64,000 bases of DNA, from the NCBI RefSeq assembly GCF_044324875.1, contig NZ_CP172185.1; one strand, 5' to 3'. A program made the translations under genes and the position numbers. Of the stretch, positions 1,972-28,380 are shown one piece after another. Under the pieces are notes generated by a model, which was not told the DNA's origin, ran no database searches, and was given only the letters and a program-made list of their open reading frames with translations. The stretch's first letter is position 1. Each line of letters starts with the position of its first letter. This DNA comes from Escherichia coli (lineage in GTDB: Bacteria > Pseudomonadota > Gammaproteobacteria > Enterobacterales > Enterobacteriaceae).

Positions 1972-3659
1972 TGAAAAACGTTTTATGTGAAACCGCCTCC
2001 GGGCGGTTTTGTCGTTTATGGAGCGTGAGGAATGGGTAAAGGCAGCAGTAAGGGGCATACCCCGCGCGAAGCGAAGGACAACCTGAAGTCCACGCAGTTG
2101 CTGAGTGTGATCGATGTCATCAGCGAAGGGCCGATACAAGGACCGGTGGATGGATTAAAAAGCGTGCTGCTGAACGGTACGCCGGTGCTGGACAGTGAGG
2201 GGAATACCAATATATCCGGCGTCACGGTGGTATTCCGGGCCGGTGAGCAGGAGCAGACGCCGCCGGAGGGATTTGAATCCTCCGGCTCCGAGACGGTGCT
2301 GGGTACGGAAGTGAAGTACGACACGCCGATTACCCGGACCATCACGTCGGCAAACATCGACCGTCTGCGCCTGACCTTCGGTGTGCAGGCACTGGTGGAA
2401 ACCACCTCAAAGGGGGACCGGAATCCGTCGGAAGTCCGCCTGCTGGTTCAGATACAGCGTAACGGTCGCTGGTTAACGGAAAAAGACATCACCATTAAGG
2501 GCAAAACCACCTCGCAGTATCTGGCCTCGGTGGTGGTGGGTAACCTGCCGCCGCGCCCGTTCAGTATCCGGATGCGCAGGATGACGCCGGACAGCACCAC
2601 AGACCAGCTGCAGAACAAAACGCTCTGGTCGTCATACACCGAAATCATCGATGTGAAACAGTGCTACCCGAACACGGCACTGGTCGGTGTGCAGGTGGAT
2701 TCGGAGCAGTTCGGCAGCCAGCAGGTGAGCCGTAATTATCATCTTCGCGGGCGCATTCTGCAGGTGCCGTCGAACTATAACCCGCAGACGCGGCAATACA
2801 GCGGTATCTGGGACGGAACGTTTAAACCGGCATACAGCAACAACCCGGCCTGGTGTCTGTGGGATATGCTGACCCATCCGCGCTACGGCATGGGGAAACG
2901 TGTTGGCGCAGCGGATGTGGATAAATGGGCGCTGTATGTCATCGGCCAGTACTGCGACCAGTCAGTGCCGGACGGCTCTGGTGGCACGGAGCCGCGCATC
3001 ACCTGTAATGCCTGGCTGACCACACAGCGTAAGGCGTGGGATGTGCTCAGTGATTTCTGCTCGGCGATGCGCTGTATGCCGGTATGGAACGGGCAGACGC
3101 TGACGTTCGTGCAGGACCGACCGTCGGATAAGGTGTGGACCTATAACCGCAGTAATGTGGTGATGCCGGATGATGGCGCGCCGTTCCGCTACAGCTTCAG
3201 CGCCCTGAAGGACCGCCATAATGCCGTTGAGGTGAACTGGAGTGACCCGGATAACGGCCAGGAGACGGCGACAGAGCTTGTGGAGGACACGCAGGCCATT
3301 GCCCGTTACGGTCGTAACGTCACGAAGATGGATGCCTTTGGCTGTACCAGCCGGGGGCAGGCACACCGCGCCGGGCTGTGGCTGATTAAAACAGAACTGC
3401 TGGAGACGCAGACCGTGGATTTCAGCGTGGGTGCTGAAGGGCTTCGCCATGTACCGGTGCAAAATGGCATCTGAATCGATCGCAGTTTGGCATTCGAATC
3501 GATCATGATTTGGCATCCATCTCCGATCACAGTTTGGCATCACAATCGATCACGATTTGGCATGCTTCCGATCATTGATTGGCATCCTGCCAGTCACTCC
3601 GGGAATTAACTCTTTTCACCACAGTCTCCATTGCCGTGTTTAAACCAGTGGAGACGTCA

Positions 3660-12046: not shown

Positions 12047-13618
12047 ATGGACACCTCACTTGCTCATGAGAACGCCCGCCTGCGGGCACTGTTGCAGACG
12101 CAACAGGACACCATCCGCCAGATGGCTGAATACAACCGCCTGCTCTCACAGCGGGTGGCGGCTTATGCTTCCGAAATCAACCGGCTGAAGGCGCTGGTTG
12201 CGAAACTGCAACGTATGCAGTTCGGTAAAAGCTCAGAAAAACTTCGTGCAAAAACCGAACGGCAGATACAGGAAGCACAGGAGCGAATCAGCGCACTTCA
12301 GGAAGAAATGGCGGAAACGCTGGGTGAGCAATATGACCCGGTACTGCCATCCGCCCTGCGCCAGTCTTCAGCCCGTAAACCGTTACCGGCCTCACTTCCC
12401 CGTGAAACCCGGGTTATCCGGCCGGAAGAGGAATGCTGTCCTGCCTGTGGTGGTGAACTCAGTTCTCTGGGATGTGATGTGTCAGAGCAACTGGAGCTTA
12501 TCAGCAGCGCCTTTAAGGTTATCGAAACACAACGTCCGAAACAGGCCTGTTGCCGGTGCGACCATATCGTGCAGGCACCAGTACCTTCAAAACCCATTGC
12601 ACGCAGTTATGCCGGAGCGGGGCTTCTGGCCCATGTTGTCACCGGGAAATATGCAGACCATCTGCCGTTATACCGCCAGTCAGAAATATACCGTCGTCAG
12701 GGAGTGGAGCTGAGCCGTGCCACACTGGGGCGCTGGACAGGTGCTGTTGCTGAACTGCTGGAGCCGCTGTATGACGTCCTGCGCCAGTATGTGCTGATGC
12801 CCGGTAAAGTCCATGCTGATGATATCCCCGTCCCGGTCCAGGAGCCGGGCAGCGGTAAAACCCGGACAGCCCGGCTGTGGGTCTACGTCCGTGATGACCG
12901 TAACGCCGGTTCACAGATGCCCCCGGCGGTCTGGTTCGCGTACAGTCCGGACCGGAAAGGTATCCATCCACAAAATCACCTGGCCGGTTACAGCGGTGTG
13001 CTTCAGGCCGATGCTTACGGTGGTTACCGGGCGTTATACGAATCCGGCAGAATAACGGAAGCCGCGTGTATGGCTCATGCCCGGAGAAAAATCCACGATG
13101 TGCATGCAAGAGCGCCCACCTACATCACCACGGAAGCCCTGCAGCGTATCGGTGAACTGTATGCCATCGAGGCAGAGGTCCGGGGCTGTTCAGCAGAACA
13201 GCGTCTGGCGGCAAGAAAAGCCAGAGCCGCGCCACTGATGCAGTCACTGTATGACTGGATACAGCAACAGATGAAAACACTGTCGCGTCACTCAGATACG
13301 GCAAAAGCGTTCGCATACCTGCTGAAACAGTGGGATGCACTGAACGTGTACTGCAGTAATGGCTGGGTGGAAATCGACAACAACATCGCAGAGAACGCCT
13401 TACGGGGAGTGGCCGTAGGCCGGAAAAACTGGATGTTCGCGGGTTCCGACAGCGGTGGTGAACATGCGGCGGTGTTGTACTCGCTGATCGGCACATGCCG
13501 TCTGAACAATGTGGAGCCAGAAAAGTGGCTGCGTTACGTCATTGAACATATCCAGGACTGGCCGGCAAACCGGGTACGCGATCTGTTGCCCTGGAAAGTT
13601 GATCTGAGCTCTCAGTAA
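12047..13618 (+). CDS. tnpC: IS66-family transposase TnpC
   Basis: 523 aa; N-terminal coiled coil, Cys cluster CCPACGGEL...CCRCDH, DDE-type catalytic region. Confidence 0.85.
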
Positions 13619-14475
13619 ATATCAATACGGTTCTGACGAGTCGCTTACGATGATCCTGAGTCTTACGGTCGTGAAATATTTGAAGCCTGCATAAGAGGTG
13701 ATGCAGGGCCGGTAGGTGAGTACCGGGCAAATGATGATATGGCTGTGGAAGAAGCACGCAGGATGAAAAACGCGGAGATAAATGCCTGGCGTGATGCGAT
13801 GGAGGCGTCAGGGTATGTTTTTGAGCACAGAGGACGGAAATGGGATTATGGAAAGGAAACCATGACACGTCTTGGAATGTCGGCATCAGCGGCCAGAGGC
13901 GGTGTGTTGCCGGAAGGATTTTTCTGGACGGACGCAGAGAATAATGATGTACCGATGACGGCAGATGAACTGATATCCCTGAGTGATGCTGCTGGTAAAG
14001 CGATGTTCAGGAAAGGCCTTGAAATACATATAAGGCAAAGGGAGATGAAAAAGGCAATAGCAGAACTGAGTGACAGTGAAACCATTCTGGCGTACAGGGT
14101 TGGATGGTGAAACTGATAAAAAAACCCCTCTGAAAATTCTGTCAGAGGGGGGCAAGGATCTATATTTATTATGCGGTAATGCTTTCACTCCGGTAATTAA
14201 TTTCAGTGATTAACTGCTTTCGATCAATAAAGGAATTGCAAAAAGGTGATCTTGTTCACGACATTGTGGATGATAATATGCCTGATGTCTGAATCCGGAA
14301 ACAGTGATCTGGCGGGTTTCATGTGAAGTTGACGGATAAAAAATCCGCACGACCAGACAGACGTGCGGTTTACGAAATTCGTAACAAGAGGCTTTTCTAG
14401 GGATCACGTGGTGCGTGCCACGTGAAATTTTTGTAGCGCAAAATGTGTAATGTGTAAATACAAGGAAGGAAAAAG

Positions 14476-14805
14476 TTAAATCGGTGGAAGTCCATACCGG
14501 GAACGTGCACGGTTACATGCTTCGTTTTCAATACCATTTTCACCAGACATGGCAAATTCCCGGCACGTTGATGAACGGTTTTCGTAGATGGTACAGCTCG
14601 CTTCTTTACCTGGTGTTCCTGCAAGGGCAATACATCTGGGGTTTTTCTGGTTTGTACCGATCATGCATCGGTGCAAAGGCGATACTTGTTCAGTAAGTCT
14701 GGCTGGAATGGTGCCGCCAGCATCGTCGGCTTCGGCCCAGTAAAAAGAGACGCGGAAAAATGCACAACAGGCACCACACGTTATGCATGGATTTGGATTG
14801 CTCAT
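14476..14805 (-). CDS. Small Cys-cluster protein (CxxCxxCC, YkgJ/UPF0153-like putative zinc or iron chelating domain) at the prophage edge
   Basis: 109 aa [28 protein letters not shown]...; motif C-x2-C-x2-C-C plus further conserved Cys. Confidence 0.5.
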
Positions 14806-15166
14806 AATTCACCACAGCTATAAATTATAAAGAAAACCGCAGCATGTCGTATGCAAGAACGTGCTGCAGCTGGCTGGTTAACTTTCGATAGTGCGAGTAT
14901 TGAATGATTTCCAGCCGTTACCGATTTTATATAACTGCAGTGGAATTATTCAACACAGGCAAAACGGAATAAGCTGAGAAAAAAGCGTACTTTCCCAATC
15001 TGGGGCAAATCACGTCTGAATGACACCTGACAACAGATGGTGGCCTCAAGAAGGCTTGGAATATTCTTCTTTAATGTTATGTAAATTATTGATTTTTCGT
15101 GTACGATTTTAAGACATTTATTCCAAGAAAAATTTTTAACTCTTTGATTTTTCGACTCTGTATCAT

Positions 15167-15228
15167 CGGTCTCGAAAACCGGAGTAGGGGCAACTCTACC
15201 GGGGGTTCAAATCCCCCTCTCTCCGCCA
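15167..15228 (+). other. Prophage attachment site (attR): 62-nt 3' fragment of the tRNA-Ser (CGA, serU-type) gene without the 5' half
   Basis: CGGTCTCGAAAACCGGAGTAGGGGCAACTCTACCGGGGGTTCAAATCCCCCTCTCTCCGCCA matches the 3' part of tRNA-Ser from the anticodon stem onward; no complementary GGAGAGA acceptor strand upstream. Confidence 0.75.
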
Positions 15229-15895
15229 CTTTATCAATGACTTATCTCCCGACTTCCCGCCTTGCTTTTCCTAAACAGAACAATCGTAGAATATTCTTGA
15301 AGGGTTAGATCGTCACTGTTTTCTGTTCGATACTGTGACATTCAGCACTTGATTCGCTATGGATCTGACAGGAAGGTTTCGAGCGAAAATCTGCAATTAT
15401 TCAGTCGTTTTCTTATCGGTCACCATTATTCTTTTAGACATTGATCCTACAAAGCTGCCGCAAAGTTGGTGGTGGGAACTGAAGTTGCGTAGAGAAGTGG
15501 TCAATAATTGAGCAAAAAAAGGAACGCGGCCGTCAGATTAAAGCCGCGGGACAAAGTCCATAATTTCCAAGAGTTGTTGAATTTCCCAGCTTTTTTGAAA
15601 GCCTTCGTATCATACTAACAAGTAAAAAAGGTTTAAATACCAAAATTAACCTATATTTCTGGTTAGCTTTACCATGACAGATGACTTGCTCCTGGAGACA
15701 TTGGCGCAGCCAGTCTGTATTGGTGAGTTGTGTATTTATTGTTCGCCGTTTTCTCAGTTTTTTCTACAGACATAATAAAAAAGACACGTCTCAAGCATGA
15801 GCGTGTCTGAGTTTGTCTTATTTATTTGTCTTGGTAAATTATTGTCGTTACTACCAGGCACTGTTCTGTTAAATAATTGAATCAGCGAAAAAAAA

Positions 15896-19769: not shown

Positions 19770-21127
19770 TGAAAAGATTATCTATAACCGTCCGTTTAAC
19801 CTTGCTTTTTATATTGGTGCTGTCTGTTGCTGGCGCTGGAATTGTCTGGACTCTCTATAATGGCCTGGCAAGTGAGTTGAAATGGCGCGATGATACAACA
19901 CTCATTAACCGGACAGCGCAGATCAAGCAGTTGTTAATTGATGGGGTAAATCCAGATACGTTACCTGTGTACTTTAACCGGATGATGGATGTTAGTCAGG
20001 ATATCTTGATCATTCATGGTGATAGCATCAACAAAATTGTTAACCGGACGAATGTCAGTGATGACATGTTAAATAACATACCTGCTACTGAGACAATCAG
20101 CGCAGCTGGCATTTACAGAAGCATTATTAATGATACAGAGATAGATGCTTTACGAATTAATATTGATGAAGTTTCGCCATCATTAACGGTTACTGTGGCT
20201 AAATTGGCTTCAGCCAGACATAACATGCTTGAACAGTATAAAATTAATAGCATTATAATTTGCATTGTCGCCATTATACTTTGTTCAGTATTAAGTCCGC
20301 TGTTAATCAGAACGGGGTTACGAGAGATCAAAAAGTTGAGTGGTGTAACGGAAGCGCTGAATTATAACGATAACCGGGAGCCTGTTGAGGTTAGCGCATT
20401 ACCGAGAGAACTAAAACCTCTTGGGCAGGCGTTGAATAAAATGCACCAAGCCTTAGTCAAAGATTTTGAACGCCTAAGTCAATTTGCTGACGATCTCGCT
20501 CATGAACTTAGAACGCCAATTAATGCATTACTGGGTCAGAATCAGGTTACGCTCAGTCAAACCAGAAGTATCGCTGAATATCAAAAAACAATTGCCGGAA
20601 ACATTGAAGAGCTGGAAAATATTTCGCGGTTAACAGAGAACATACTGTTTCTTGCCAGGGCAGATAAAAATAATGTTTTGGTGAAACTGGACTCGCTTTC
20701 TCTCAATAAGGAAGTCGAAAATTTGTTGGACTATCTTGAATACCTTTCAGACGAGAAAGAGATTTGCTTTAAGGTCGAGTGCAATCAGCAAATCTTTGCG
20801 GATAAAATTTTACTACAACGAATGTTATCGAATCTTATTGTTAACGCTATTCGATATTCGCCAGAAAAATCGCGCATTCTTATAACCAGTTTTCTTGATA
20901 CCAACGGCTCTCTTAATATTGATATCGCCAGCCCTGGTACGAAAATTAATGAGCATGAAAAACTCTTCCGTAGATTTTGGCGCGGAGATAATTCGCGTCA
21001 TTCCGTAGGTCAGGGACTTGGTCTTTCTTTAGTCAAAGCGATTGCCGAATTGCATGGGGGAAGTGCTACGTATCACTATCTCAATAAGCTTAATGTGTTC
21101 CGGATTACGTTACCGCAAAGAAATTAA
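19769..21127 (+). CDS. hprS: Sensor histidine kinase HprS (YedV)
   Basis: 452 aa; two transmembrane segments, H-box LAHELRTPINAL, ATPase domain; coupled to hprR. Confidence 0.9.
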   Translation: MKRLSITVRLTLLFILVLSVAGAGIVWTLYNGLASELKWRDDTTLINRTAQIKQLLIDGVNPDTLPVYFNRMMDVSQDILIIHGDSINKIVNRTNVSDDMLNNIPATETISAAGIYRSIINDTEIDALRINIDEVSPSLTVTVAKLASARHNMLEQYKINSIIICIVAIILCSVLSPLLIRTGLREIKKLSGVTEALNYNDNREPVEVSALPRELKPLGQALNKMHQALVKDFERLSQFADDLAHELRTPINALLGQNQVTLSQTRSIAEYQKTIAGNIEELENISRLTENILFLARADKNNVLVKLDSLSLNKEVENLLDYLEYLSDEKEICFKVECNQQIFADKILLQRMLSNLIVNAIRYSPEKSRILITSFLDTNGSLNIDIASPGTKINEHEKLFRRFWRGDNSRHSVGQGLGLSLVKAIAELHGGSATYHYLNKLNVFRITLPQRN

Positions 21128-21233
21128 CATAGGGCTTCAGTACGCCATAAATTAACCGTGAAAAACGCAGCCACGTCGTGAGTATTAACGTGGCTGCGAT
21201 TGATTATGCGCTTACATTACAATGTAACAGGGA

Positions 21234-23870: not shown

Positions 23871-24498
23871 TATGTATTCCCTTGTGATTATAATCTTCAT
23901 GAATATATCAATAAGTGCCGTTATCCAAAAAAAAGCACATTTGGATACTATTCTATGAAGTTCATTTTATTTTAAAGATTACATGTAACAAATATATTTA
24001 AAAGATTTCAAAATGTTTCTAATCTATTTAATATAATTCAGAATTATGAATTCTAAATATAAATATTCATGAAAATTATAAATGTATATCAATATGTTAT
24101 GAGTTGAGCGGAAACATAGGGGGTATCAATGATTGTTGCGCCAAACGGCTGGTGTGATCACGCGCACATTAATGAAGGCATAAAAAAAGCCGGCATCATG
24201 CCGGCCCAAAAAAAATAAACAAGACGATAAAAGGCTAATAACGGAAGCATCATGACACAGAATAATAAAAAGGTATAATTGTAATCAGTGCTAATATATT
24301 GATTGAATGAATTAATAAAGCCGATATCAAAGATAAATAAAATCGCTCAAAACGATTTTTCCTGTATTCACTGCCGTTGCGCAAAAATTATCTATTTGTT
24401 CAAAAAATGATTGAGTCTTGACTGGCTCATCCAATGTGGAAAAATGTGACTTTTATCACATAATAGTACTAAGTCTGAATTTTCCGGGTTATCTCAAA

Positions 24499-27471: not shown

Positions 27472-28380
27472 TGCGTCCTGAATAACGGGCGCAACTACGG
27501 GTTTTGCCGGGAAGAGATATTTTCCCAACGTGACCAGTAACACCGCGAAGACAATCACGCCGAGCGCCAGCCATTCAATCTTCGACAGCGTCTCTCCGCC
27601 CAGTCCCGTACCCAGCAAGACCGCGACCACCGGGTTAACGTAGGCGTAGCTGGTGGCGAGAGCCGGACTGACGTTGCGGATTAAATACATATAAGCGTTA
27701 ATGGCGATAATTGAACCAAACAGCGCCAGATAGCCGACCGCAAGGAAGCCTGAAAGGGAAGGGAGCGCCGTCAGTTTTTCACCCGCAATCATCGACGCGA
27801 TCATTAACACCACGCCTGCTGCCAGCATCTCAATCGCACCCGCCATCATCCCTACAGGTAAGGTAATGCGCGAGCCATAAACCGAGCCAAACGCCCAGCT
27901 AATCGAGCCGATTAAAATCAGAATCGCGCCCCACGGATTGCCGCTTAAATTTCCACCGCTATAGAGCATGATGATTCCGGCAAGCCCAATGGCGATACCC
28001 ACCCATTCCAGTTTGCGCGTTTTAATGCCAAACAGGCGGCTGAAGCACAGGGTAAAGAGGGGCACGGTTGCAACCACTACGGCGGCGATGCCGGAAGGAA
28101 CATTTTGATGTTCGGCAACCGTCACCATGCCATTACCGACAGCCAGCAATAACAGGCCAATCAGCGCGGCATTGAGCAGCGGACGTAGCGGGGGGAGTTT
28201 GTGTCCGCGCAGTAGCAAAAATGCCAGCAATAAAATACCGGCTGCCAGGAATCGAACGCCCGCCATCATTAACGGCGGCCAGCTTTCCACGCCAATCCGA
28301 ATGACAAAATAGGTTGAGCCCCAAATGATATACAACGCAAACAACGCGCCAAAAAGCGGTAACAACTGGCGGAAACGCAT
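27460..28380 (-). CDS. yedA: EamA/DMT-family inner membrane transporter YedA
   Basis: 306 aa, ten predicted transmembrane helices. Confidence 0.9.
   Translation of the reverse strand: MRFRQLLPLFGALFALYIIWGSTYFVIRIGVESWPPLMMAGVRFLAAGILLLAFLLLRGHKLPPLRPLLNAALIGLLLLAVGNGMVTVAEHQNVPSGIAAVVVATVPLFTLCFSRLFGIKTRKLEWVGIAIGLAGIIMLYSGGNLSGNPWGAILILIGSISWAFGSVYGSRITLPVGMMAGAIEMLAAGVVLMIASMIAGEKLTALPSLSGFLAVGYLALFGSIIAINAYMYLIRNVSPALATSYAYVNPVVAVLLGTGLGGETLSKIEWLALGVIVFAVLLVTLGKYLFPAKPVVAPVIQDASSE

Follow-up and report, generated by a model that had tools for sequence, protein, structure and literature searches.

Why does a short near-palindrome stand twice in one stretch of an Escherichia coli chromosome, and what does each copy do there? 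The stretch in question comprises 64,000 nucleotides (nt) of contig NZ_CP172185.1 in assembly GCF_044324875.1 (the window, throughout), and the two 38-nt elements lie at 14838-14875 (copy 1) and 49794-49831 (copy 2), written on the plus strand. A preliminary description, based on the letters of the window, suggested an operator, an att site or other recombination relic, or a structured RNA. In this work, we find that the two copies mark one fairly intact (copy 1) and one decayed (copy 2) prophage edge, and that a non-coding module of about 100 bp, carried by lambdoid phages and prophages of Escherichia, probably (we put this at roughly 0.65) has the element as its terminator stem-loop. The evidence consists of the conservation of the element, the covariation of its stem, its genomic contexts and an RNA 3' end mapped in vivo at the homologous hairpin upstream of ykgJ in strain K-12. 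Of the earlier suggestions, the structure (supported by covariation) and the relic of a prophage end hold, while the att site and the operator do not.

The repeated element

Both the coordinates and the number of differences given in the preliminary description are exact: the 38-mers are identical at 33 positions and differ at five. A degenerate search allowing up to three mismatches finds the element at these two places alone in the window and in none of 100 shuffled sequences, that is, no copy is expected by chance. When the two copies are aligned together with 200 bp of flanking sequence, the likeness ends at the edges of the 38-mer and the flanks are unrelated; thus, the copies are not parts of a longer shared sequence, coding or otherwise.

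The inverted repeat reported for each copy is real. In copy 2 it is CGCAGCAC/GTGCTGCG, which extends to about 11 pairs when G-U pairs are included, and in copy 1 it is CCGCAGCATG/CGTGCTGCAG, which has 10 positions with one C-A mismatch and one U-G pair. Read on the minus strand, the hairpin of copy 1 occupies 14837-14869, its stem being followed by an irregular top that closes in a 4-nt loop, and the 38-mer covers this hairpin plus 6 nt of the next stem; the hairpin of copy 2 occupies 49792-49826. Either copy can fold on both strands. The minus-strand fold has an energy of -16.3 kcal/mol (z -2.45) in copy 1 and of -16.9 kcal/mol (z -3.03, or about -3.0) in copy 2, and the plus-strand fold of copy 2 reaches -25.2 kcal/mol (z -5.2).

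A third, weaker match to the hairpin profile (nhmmer E-value 4.6e-4) lies at 21161-21202, between the convergent genes hprS and hchA. It has a perfect 11-bp stem, CGCAGCCACGT/ACGTGGCTGCG, and a run of five T on the minus strand, and may be an old relative of the element or else a terminator that resembles it in the stem without being related.

Stem covariation and strand polarity

For the covariation analysis, 49 homologues were chosen through a conserved segment adjacent to the hairpin (the extension described below), so that the hairpin itself was not preselected. Both sides have changed in six of the eight testable stem pairs, and none of 500 shuffles reaches the observed covariation, which confirms a structured element. 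Over 10 stem positions, Watson-Crick pairs fill 87% of the cells, as counted by a script; the formal pair count is limited to eight of these 10 pairs because the MAFFT alignment places a bulge wrongly. The paired arms of the variants include CCGCAG with CTGCGG, CCGCGG with CCGCGG, CCGTAG with CTACGA, CGGTAC with GTACCG, CCGTGG with CCACGG, and CATGC with GCATG. The bulge is a single nucleotide, which can be any base and is present in some copies and absent from others, and one variant has an entirely different top. Nothing points to an operator: the stem changes by compensation, and the sequence of a half-site is not fixed.

Sequence beyond the stem distinguishes the two strands. Of 130 unique contexts, 49% have four or more U within the 8 nt past the stem when the minus strand is read, and 2% have them on the plus strand.

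Distribution in genomes and phages

Far from being confined to the window, the 38-mer recurs in 5184 of 5426 complete E. coli genomes, at a median of two places per genome (range 1-9), and in 147 phage records, including lambda, HK97, phi80, P27, Rac and the Shiga toxin (Stx) phages. In a search of one genome per species across bacteria, the matches were in Escherichia only, apart from three probable contaminants.

The well-known phages show where the element sits. In lambda it lies at 24163-24201, between ea47 and ea31. In HK97 it lies at 20947-20985, after the stop codon of tfa and before both the separately annotated sib (21042-21091) and the att core. The phi80 copy follows the last tail-fibre gene by 8 bp and the stop codon of dinL, a LexA-controlled gene of the dinI family, by 81 nt; the P27 copy is 8 bp past L57 and about 275 bp before attR; and the Rac copy of K-12 is between ynaM and the right end of the prophage. 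Stx phage records in prophage order have their copy approximately 0.5-2 kb from the right end. In prophages, the hairpin is at the end opposite int, in several records about 280-600 bp from attR, and it can serve as a simple sequence marker for the right ends of lambdoid prophages and their relics. None of the records of lambda, HK97, phi80, HK106 and P27 annotates it as a feature; that is, a conserved structured element stands unannotated even in the classic genome of lambda.

An att site is excluded by these positions, since the att cores of HK97, phi80 and P27 are annotated separately, about 240-1800 bp away, and the core in the window is a tRNA gene fragment at 15167-15229 (see below).

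A module at the tail-fibre end

To delimit the conserved unit, we scanned IMG/VR twice, using as anchors the hairpin and the adjacent conserved segment, respectively, and collected loci (L009-L221) from more than 200 phage contigs. The conserved unit consists of the hairpin and a 60-nt extension to its right, which corresponds to 14870-14929 in the window. Beyond the edges of this unit, at least five unrelated types of flank are found on each side, and in two loci the joint falls inside the left arm of the stem. Bare hairpins, without the extension, also exist, including those of Rac and of copy 2.

The extension can fold into a second stem-loop (GGCUGG...CCAGCC) whose loop of about 33 nt is highly conserved. 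Aligned across 55 unique phage copies, the extension has a -10-like TAAAAT at its end, and this hexamer forms the conserved edge of the module; a -35 sequence is not conserved across the other flank types. Among 33 unique loci, nucleotide diversity in the extension is 0.04-0.08, against 0.081 at codon positions 1 and 2 and 0.142 at position 3 of the adjacent dinI-like gene, a comparison that is biased in that these loci were picked by an exact 24-nt anchor within the extension.

The neighbours were tabulated for 68 unique contexts. On the left there is mostly a plus-strand gene that ends 0-41 nt from the unit and encodes Tfa (PF02413) or a Pin-type invertase (PF00239). On the right there is mostly a minus-strand gene that ends just past the extension, the commonest being a gene for an 82-amino-acid DinI-like protein (PF06183, 1e-19); the whole arrangement of dinI-like gene, extension and hairpin is found in 1407 genomes. 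In contigs in phage order, the genes of four different tyrosine integrases, which between them have three different arm-binding domains, are directed at the hairpin from the right and end 156-710 nt away from it. Whatever the integrase, then, the hairpin element is a punctuation mark between a rightward late operon and a leftward accessory and integration arm.

Copy 1 and the serU-integrated prophage

To the left of copy 1 are tail-fibre genes, broken up by an IS66-family element, and to its right are the 3' 63 nt of serU, a gene for tRNA-Ser (15167-15229, plus strand), followed by the native serU flank. Beginning at the anticodon stem, this fragment is identical to K-12 serU, and the identity continues across the flank; no complete tRNA gene is found in the window by ARAGORN. 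With tail genes on one side and a serU fragment with its native flank (that is, attR) on the other, copy 1 is located 291 bp inside the attR of a lambdoid prophage integrated in serU, and is a relic of a prophage right end. The IS66-family element (12047-13618 and neighbouring positions) encodes an ISCro1-like transposase of 523 amino acids, and its insertion among the tail-fibre genes indicates a probably defective prophage.

On the minus strand, the full module is present. The 60-nt extension, recognised by the 55-copy phage alignment and its fold (14870-14929), precedes the hairpin (14837-14869), which is followed by a U-rich tract, GUUUUCUUUAUAA, at 14824-14836. This tract reaches into the ribosome-binding region of an open reading frame (ORF) at 14476-14805, directly downstream of copy 1, which encodes a 109-amino-acid protein of the YkgJ family with a CxxCxxCC cysteine cluster (PF03692, 9.4e-11). 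The placement of copy 1 upstream of a minus-strand cysteine-cluster ORF, as previously noted, is correct, the distance being 31 nt. The ORF is a paralogue of the core gene ykgJ, and 95 of its 109 residues are identical to K-12 YkgJ.

A promoter-like site, TTGAAT-18-TAAAAT, overlaps the outer edge of the extension (14924-14953, minus strand; 9 of 12 matches). It could be the start of a short RNA of about 85 nt that ends at the hairpin. Note that two promoter-like sites were found where shuffled sequences give 1.6, which makes the site weak when taken alone.

Two further observations concern this neighbourhood. First, just past the 3' end of the YkgJ-family ORF, toward the tail-fibre side, there is a palindromic terminator-like hairpin, TCACGTGGTGCGTGCCACGTGA (14404-14425), followed by a T-rich run on the plus strand. 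Second, motifs resembling GGGGCAAA(A/T) are repeated at 14940-15160, between the hairpin and the att core of the serU prophage. Similar motifs, more striking than these, occur at the right end of Rac in K-12 (3040-3130 of locus L004), and such repeats may be arm-type sites of the integrase.

The core ykgJ locus and an RNA 3' end in vivo

A search for modules of the dinI type shows that most E. coli genomes carry the hairpin and the extension in the ecpE-ykgJ spacer, directly upstream of core ykgJ. The window segment 14534-14929, which contains the ykgJ paralogue, the hairpin and the extension, is 85.7% identical over 399 bp to K-12 core ykgJ and its upstream spacer. In K-12 (NC_000913.3, 304183-304494; 884-1195 of locus L235), this spacer contains, in addition to the extension and the hairpin, a 3' remnant of a dinI-like gene (a pseudogene), which makes the core ykgJ locus look like an old lambdoid prophage end.

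The homologous hairpin coincides with a mapped RNA end. The K-12 Term-seq data of Adams et al. (2021; PMC7815308) list a 3' end at 304212/304213 on the minus strand, supported by approximately 88,000-99,000 reads, with 'No' as to a region of Rho termination and 2.78 as the intrinsic-terminator score. This end is 5 nt past the homologous stem and 30-31 nt before the ATG of ykgJ, and the sequence printed for it is this hairpin. Three ykgJ matches in supplement 3 of that paper suggest that the end is present in all three growth conditions, and the rules by which ends were listed imply a mapped transcription start 21-282 nt upstream of it. The main text of PMC7815308 is silent on the RNA. As for that start, no promoter was called at the K-12 locus, and a Cappable-seq supplement contains no coordinates near it.

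The gene downstream has been described in another connection: ykgJ is among the RyhB-repressed targets in a ribosome-profiling study (PMC4666370), and K-12 ykgJ, which follows the leader hairpin, may therefore be regulated by iron post-transcriptionally.

Copy 2, yedL and the cryptic prophage PR-G

Copy 2 is a bare hairpin. On the minus strand it starts 4 nt past the stop codon (TGA, 49833-49831) of yedL, a gene for a GNAT acetyltransferase (49831-50310, minus strand) whose transcript runs into it, and it is followed by a U-rich tail, UUUAUUCAUCAC (49780-49791), that is weaker than that of copy 1. Convergent with yedL across the hairpin is yedN (48579-49693, plus strand), a disrupted form of the type III secretion system effector gene espR3; in O157 and O145 strains, espR3 is found intact at this place. 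The presence of an effector gene beside a prophage-end hairpin is in keeping with an exchangeable effector locus.

The preliminary description had placed copy 2 where K-12 carries intG, which is off by about 1.4 kb: the integrase remnant lies to the left, next to fliE (48295-48393, minus strand), and forms the left end of the cryptic prophage PR-G. K-12 is arranged alike, under that label, and its hairpin is identical to copy 2. Copy 2 is accordingly a relic of the right end of PR-G, and through the hairpin yedL and yedN/espR3 are joined with the intG remnant into a single decayed prophage.

Strain comparisons bear on the unity of this segment. Strain M15 lacks a piece of about 600 bp (49759-50362) that contains both the hairpin and yedL, with a 5-bp microhomology, GTCTA, at the junction, which indicates that the two travel together; yedN is also gone from M15, and the integrase remnant is kept. 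More widely, yedL and the hairpin are jointly missing from about half of the complete E. coli genomes, and strains that miss this segment still keep the intG remnant.

Proposed role of the module

The following scheme would account for these observations. The module stands at the meeting point of a rightward late operon (tail fibre, tail-fibre assembly, Pin invertase) and a leftward arm consisting of dinI-like or other cargo, int and attP. Read on the minus strand, the 60-nt stem-loop segment, the GC-rich hairpin and, usually, a U-rich tract follow one another in the form of an intrinsic, Rho-independent terminator. In the phage, its role would be to stop leftward transcripts, whether from dinI-like genes, from int across attP or from the host reading in at attR, before they enter the tail-fibre genes in antisense.

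The two window copies would then serve different genes, and termination at both is what we infer from homology and from their sequences. Placed about 30 nt upstream of the ykgJ paralogue, copy 1, with the full module, would act as a leader terminator: most transcripts would end as a short RNA, and read-through alone would reach the paralogue, whose expression would presumably be gated in this way. Copy 2, the bare hairpin left at the right end of PR-G between the convergent espR3/yedN and yedL, most likely terminates yedL.

Among known systems, the module comes close to the intrinsic terminators in 5' leaders that yield short stable RNAs, as catalogued in K-12 (PMC7815308). The GC-rich stem-loop is shared, as is the U-rich tract in those contexts that have one, the K-12 homologue upstream of ykgJ is listed in that catalogue as an abundant 3' end, and copy 1 is placed alike, about 30 nt before the start codon of the paralogue. 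Unlike the catalogued leader terminators, the hairpin belongs to a mobile phage module and occurs in many contexts other than leaders, and, in contrast to the small loop of an ordinary intrinsic terminator, the top of its stem is irregular and fairly conserved.

Comparison can also be made with the boundaries of morons and exchangeable effector loci in lambdoid prophages, an established concept in the literature (Juhala 2000; Tobe 2006). There, too, cargo is swapped around terminator-like punctuation near the tail-fibre end, the cargo in our case being ykgJ-like and dinI-like genes, espR3, yedL, and genes for a GGDEF protein and a GIY-YIG protein. The difference is that we found no description of this conserved hairpin or module; our literature search yielded neither an account of the element nor a paper printing its sequence.

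Several observations weigh against a terminator. The U tract is missing in lambda and in the commonest tfa-adjacent type, and a simple terminator scan called neither window copy. The K-12 Term-seq tables list no 3' end at the yedL hairpin or at the Rac hairpin, so that termination at copy 2 lacks direct support. The wobble counts favour neither strand, with 18 G-U cells on the plus strand and 24 A-C cells, which correspond to G-U on the minus strand. The CssrB model of Rfam puts the hairpin at the 3' end of an RNA from the plus, that is, the opposite, strand. Finally, the extension is conserved beyond the needs of a plain 3' untranslated region or spacer, and this excess suggests a function beyond termination.

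As to kind, an ordinary intrinsic terminator and a prophage relic would be nothing unusual. The interest lies in the breadth of the distribution, the presence in lambda, and the uncharacterised RNA of K-12.

Alternative explanations

The strongest alternative is that extension and hairpin together form a phage-borne gene for a small RNA (sRNA) of about 85-180 nt, which could also be derived from a leader or act as a sponge. Its promoter would be its own, located at the conserved TAAAAT, and the hairpin would be no more than its terminator and chaperone-binding end. This proposal overlaps with a terminator and does not exclude one; we regard it as possible but doubtful. The abundant orphan 3' end at the K-12 homologue, with its implied mapped start upstream, speaks for such a gene, and the architecture of two hairpins and a U tail is suitable. 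Diversity in the extension (0.04-0.08) is below that of the dinI-like coding positions while the terminator stem varies by compensation, which is the usual pattern of sRNAs, although the diversity figures carry the anchor bias given above. Likewise, a -10-like TAAAAT stands at the conserved edge, and copy 1 has the promoter-like TTGAAT-18-TAAAAT, but flank types do not share a conserved -35 region, and the K-12 locus has no called promoter. Nor was an Rfam family found on the minus strand. Moreover, little or nothing of the extension is present in copy 2, in Rac and in the commonest tfa-adjacent type, so that an RNA composed of extension and hairpin is impossible from these loci.

It is conceivable, though we would not bet on it, that a previously undescribed phage-borne RNA of about 85-180 nt, present in lambda too, has been spread by lambdoid phages through nearly all E. 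coli, has been domesticated upstream of core ykgJ, where its 3' end is one of the abundant ones in K-12, and has a regulatory role of its own. As such it might work in trans as an sRNA or sponge, or gate ykgJ-family genes as a sensing leader, perhaps with a tie to the SOS-regulated dinI-like gene that it usually follows. Should the K-12 RNA upstream of ykgJ prove functional, most E. coli would carry a regulator that came from a phage.

Another sRNA candidate would come from the opposite strand. CssrB (RF02799), the sole Rfam similarity, would be a plus-strand RNA of about 180 nt that ends at the hairpin and lies antisense to the start of the ykgJ-like gene. The 3'-terminal hairpin of the model is this hairpin, it aligns to both copies on the plus strand, and a loop variant, GUCUUAAGCAAGAAC, occurs in some phage copies; in Shigella flexneri 301, a Northern band of about 180 nt was reported between SF2021 and SF2022 (PMC3071730), a locus that, by gene numbering, is probably a serU-linked ykgJ-like locus. 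The scores in the window are nevertheless 37.6 bits for copy 1 and 17.2 bits for copy 2, against a gathering threshold of 76, and the alignment takes in the hairpin and a few bases beside it only, the first 140 or so positions of the model being missing from the window copies. In PMC3071730, neither end was mapped: a predicted terminator supplied the 3' end, and the size of the band was used to work out the 5' end. Since, in addition, the plus strand has a U tract in just 2% of contexts and the K-12 Term-seq end is on the minus strand, membership of the CssrB family is unlikely.

Other known sRNAs do not match the element. The Anti-sRNAs and Pas sRNAs of enterohaemorrhagic and enteropathogenic E. 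coli prophages are located near pR'/Q and the lysis genes rather than at the tail-fibre end and are restricted to pathogens; the motif was not found in one supplementary file of the Pas preprint. EcsR2 is on the other side of ykgJ (yagU-ykgJ) and EcsR1 is between uspF and ompN, and neither is the hairpin.

A retroregulator was also considered. If the int transcript crossed attP into the hairpin, processing by RNase III could destabilise the int mRNA, as in sib/tI-type retroregulation, and the site would be parted from int in the prophage, as it is in lambda. The four int types, directed at the hairpin and ending 156-710 nt from it on the right, would be in the proper place, and so would the prophage hairpins opposite the int end, about 280-600 bp from attR, including copy 1 at 291 bp from its att fragment. 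The element thus shares with lambda tI/sib a place beyond attP on the int-sense strand, a move to the end opposite int upon integration, and a hairpin that would stop leftward transcription. It differs in that its sequence bears no similarity to sib and that it is not bound to one integrase, following dinI-like genes, yedL and others as well. In HK97, the two even coexist, the annotated sib of lambda (21042-21091) lying between the element and attP, while in lambda the element is 3.5 kb from attP (core 27724-27738 in the record), with ea31 and ea59 in between. In lambda, sib lies near 27.5 kb. These facts rule out that the hairpin is lambda sib itself and leave a sib-like role distinctly improbable. 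An arm site of an integrase is ruled out as well, because the same hairpin occurs with at least four different integrases and several unrelated att cores.

It is very improbable that the element acts at the DNA level, as a recombination hot spot or linker, a cruciform, or a protein-binding site for module exchange at prophage ends. Mosaic joints do cluster at its edges (the at least five types of left flank and of right flank, and the two joints inside the left arm), and the absence of a strand preference in the wobble counts would suit such a site; but any conserved segment should gather joints by way of ordinary homologous recombination, the element has no consistent link to a recombinase, compensatory changes keep the pairing rather than a fixed sequence, and the RNA 3' end found in vivo accounts for the structure.

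Lastly, ORFs do cross the hairpin, for example one of 17 codons with a good Shine-Dalgarno sequence in lambda, but the 1-nt indel in the arm and the differing stop codons rule out a coding remnant, and the 'capsid protein' that PGAP calls on the hairpin has an internal stop.

Annotation and other features of the window

From attR onward, the window agrees with K-12 at 96% through the serU 3' fragment and its flank as far as 15675, after which come about 220 bp (15676-15895) that have no K-12 match. Farther along, the yodB ORF was not found before zinT in the window; the closest relative, strain AR_0085, has yodB, and the gene appears to have been deleted or replaced in the window strain.

Automatic annotation has produced two coding calls on the element. 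Over copy 1, RefSeq has a 69-bp 'capsid protein' pseudogene with an internal stop (14861-14929, positioned by homology to locus L001), and over copy 2, some genomes have an 18-amino-acid 'cyclic lactone autoinducer peptide' coding sequence (49777-49834, positioned by homology to locus L223). Both look like spurious calls on the hairpin, which accounts for these two odd annotations.

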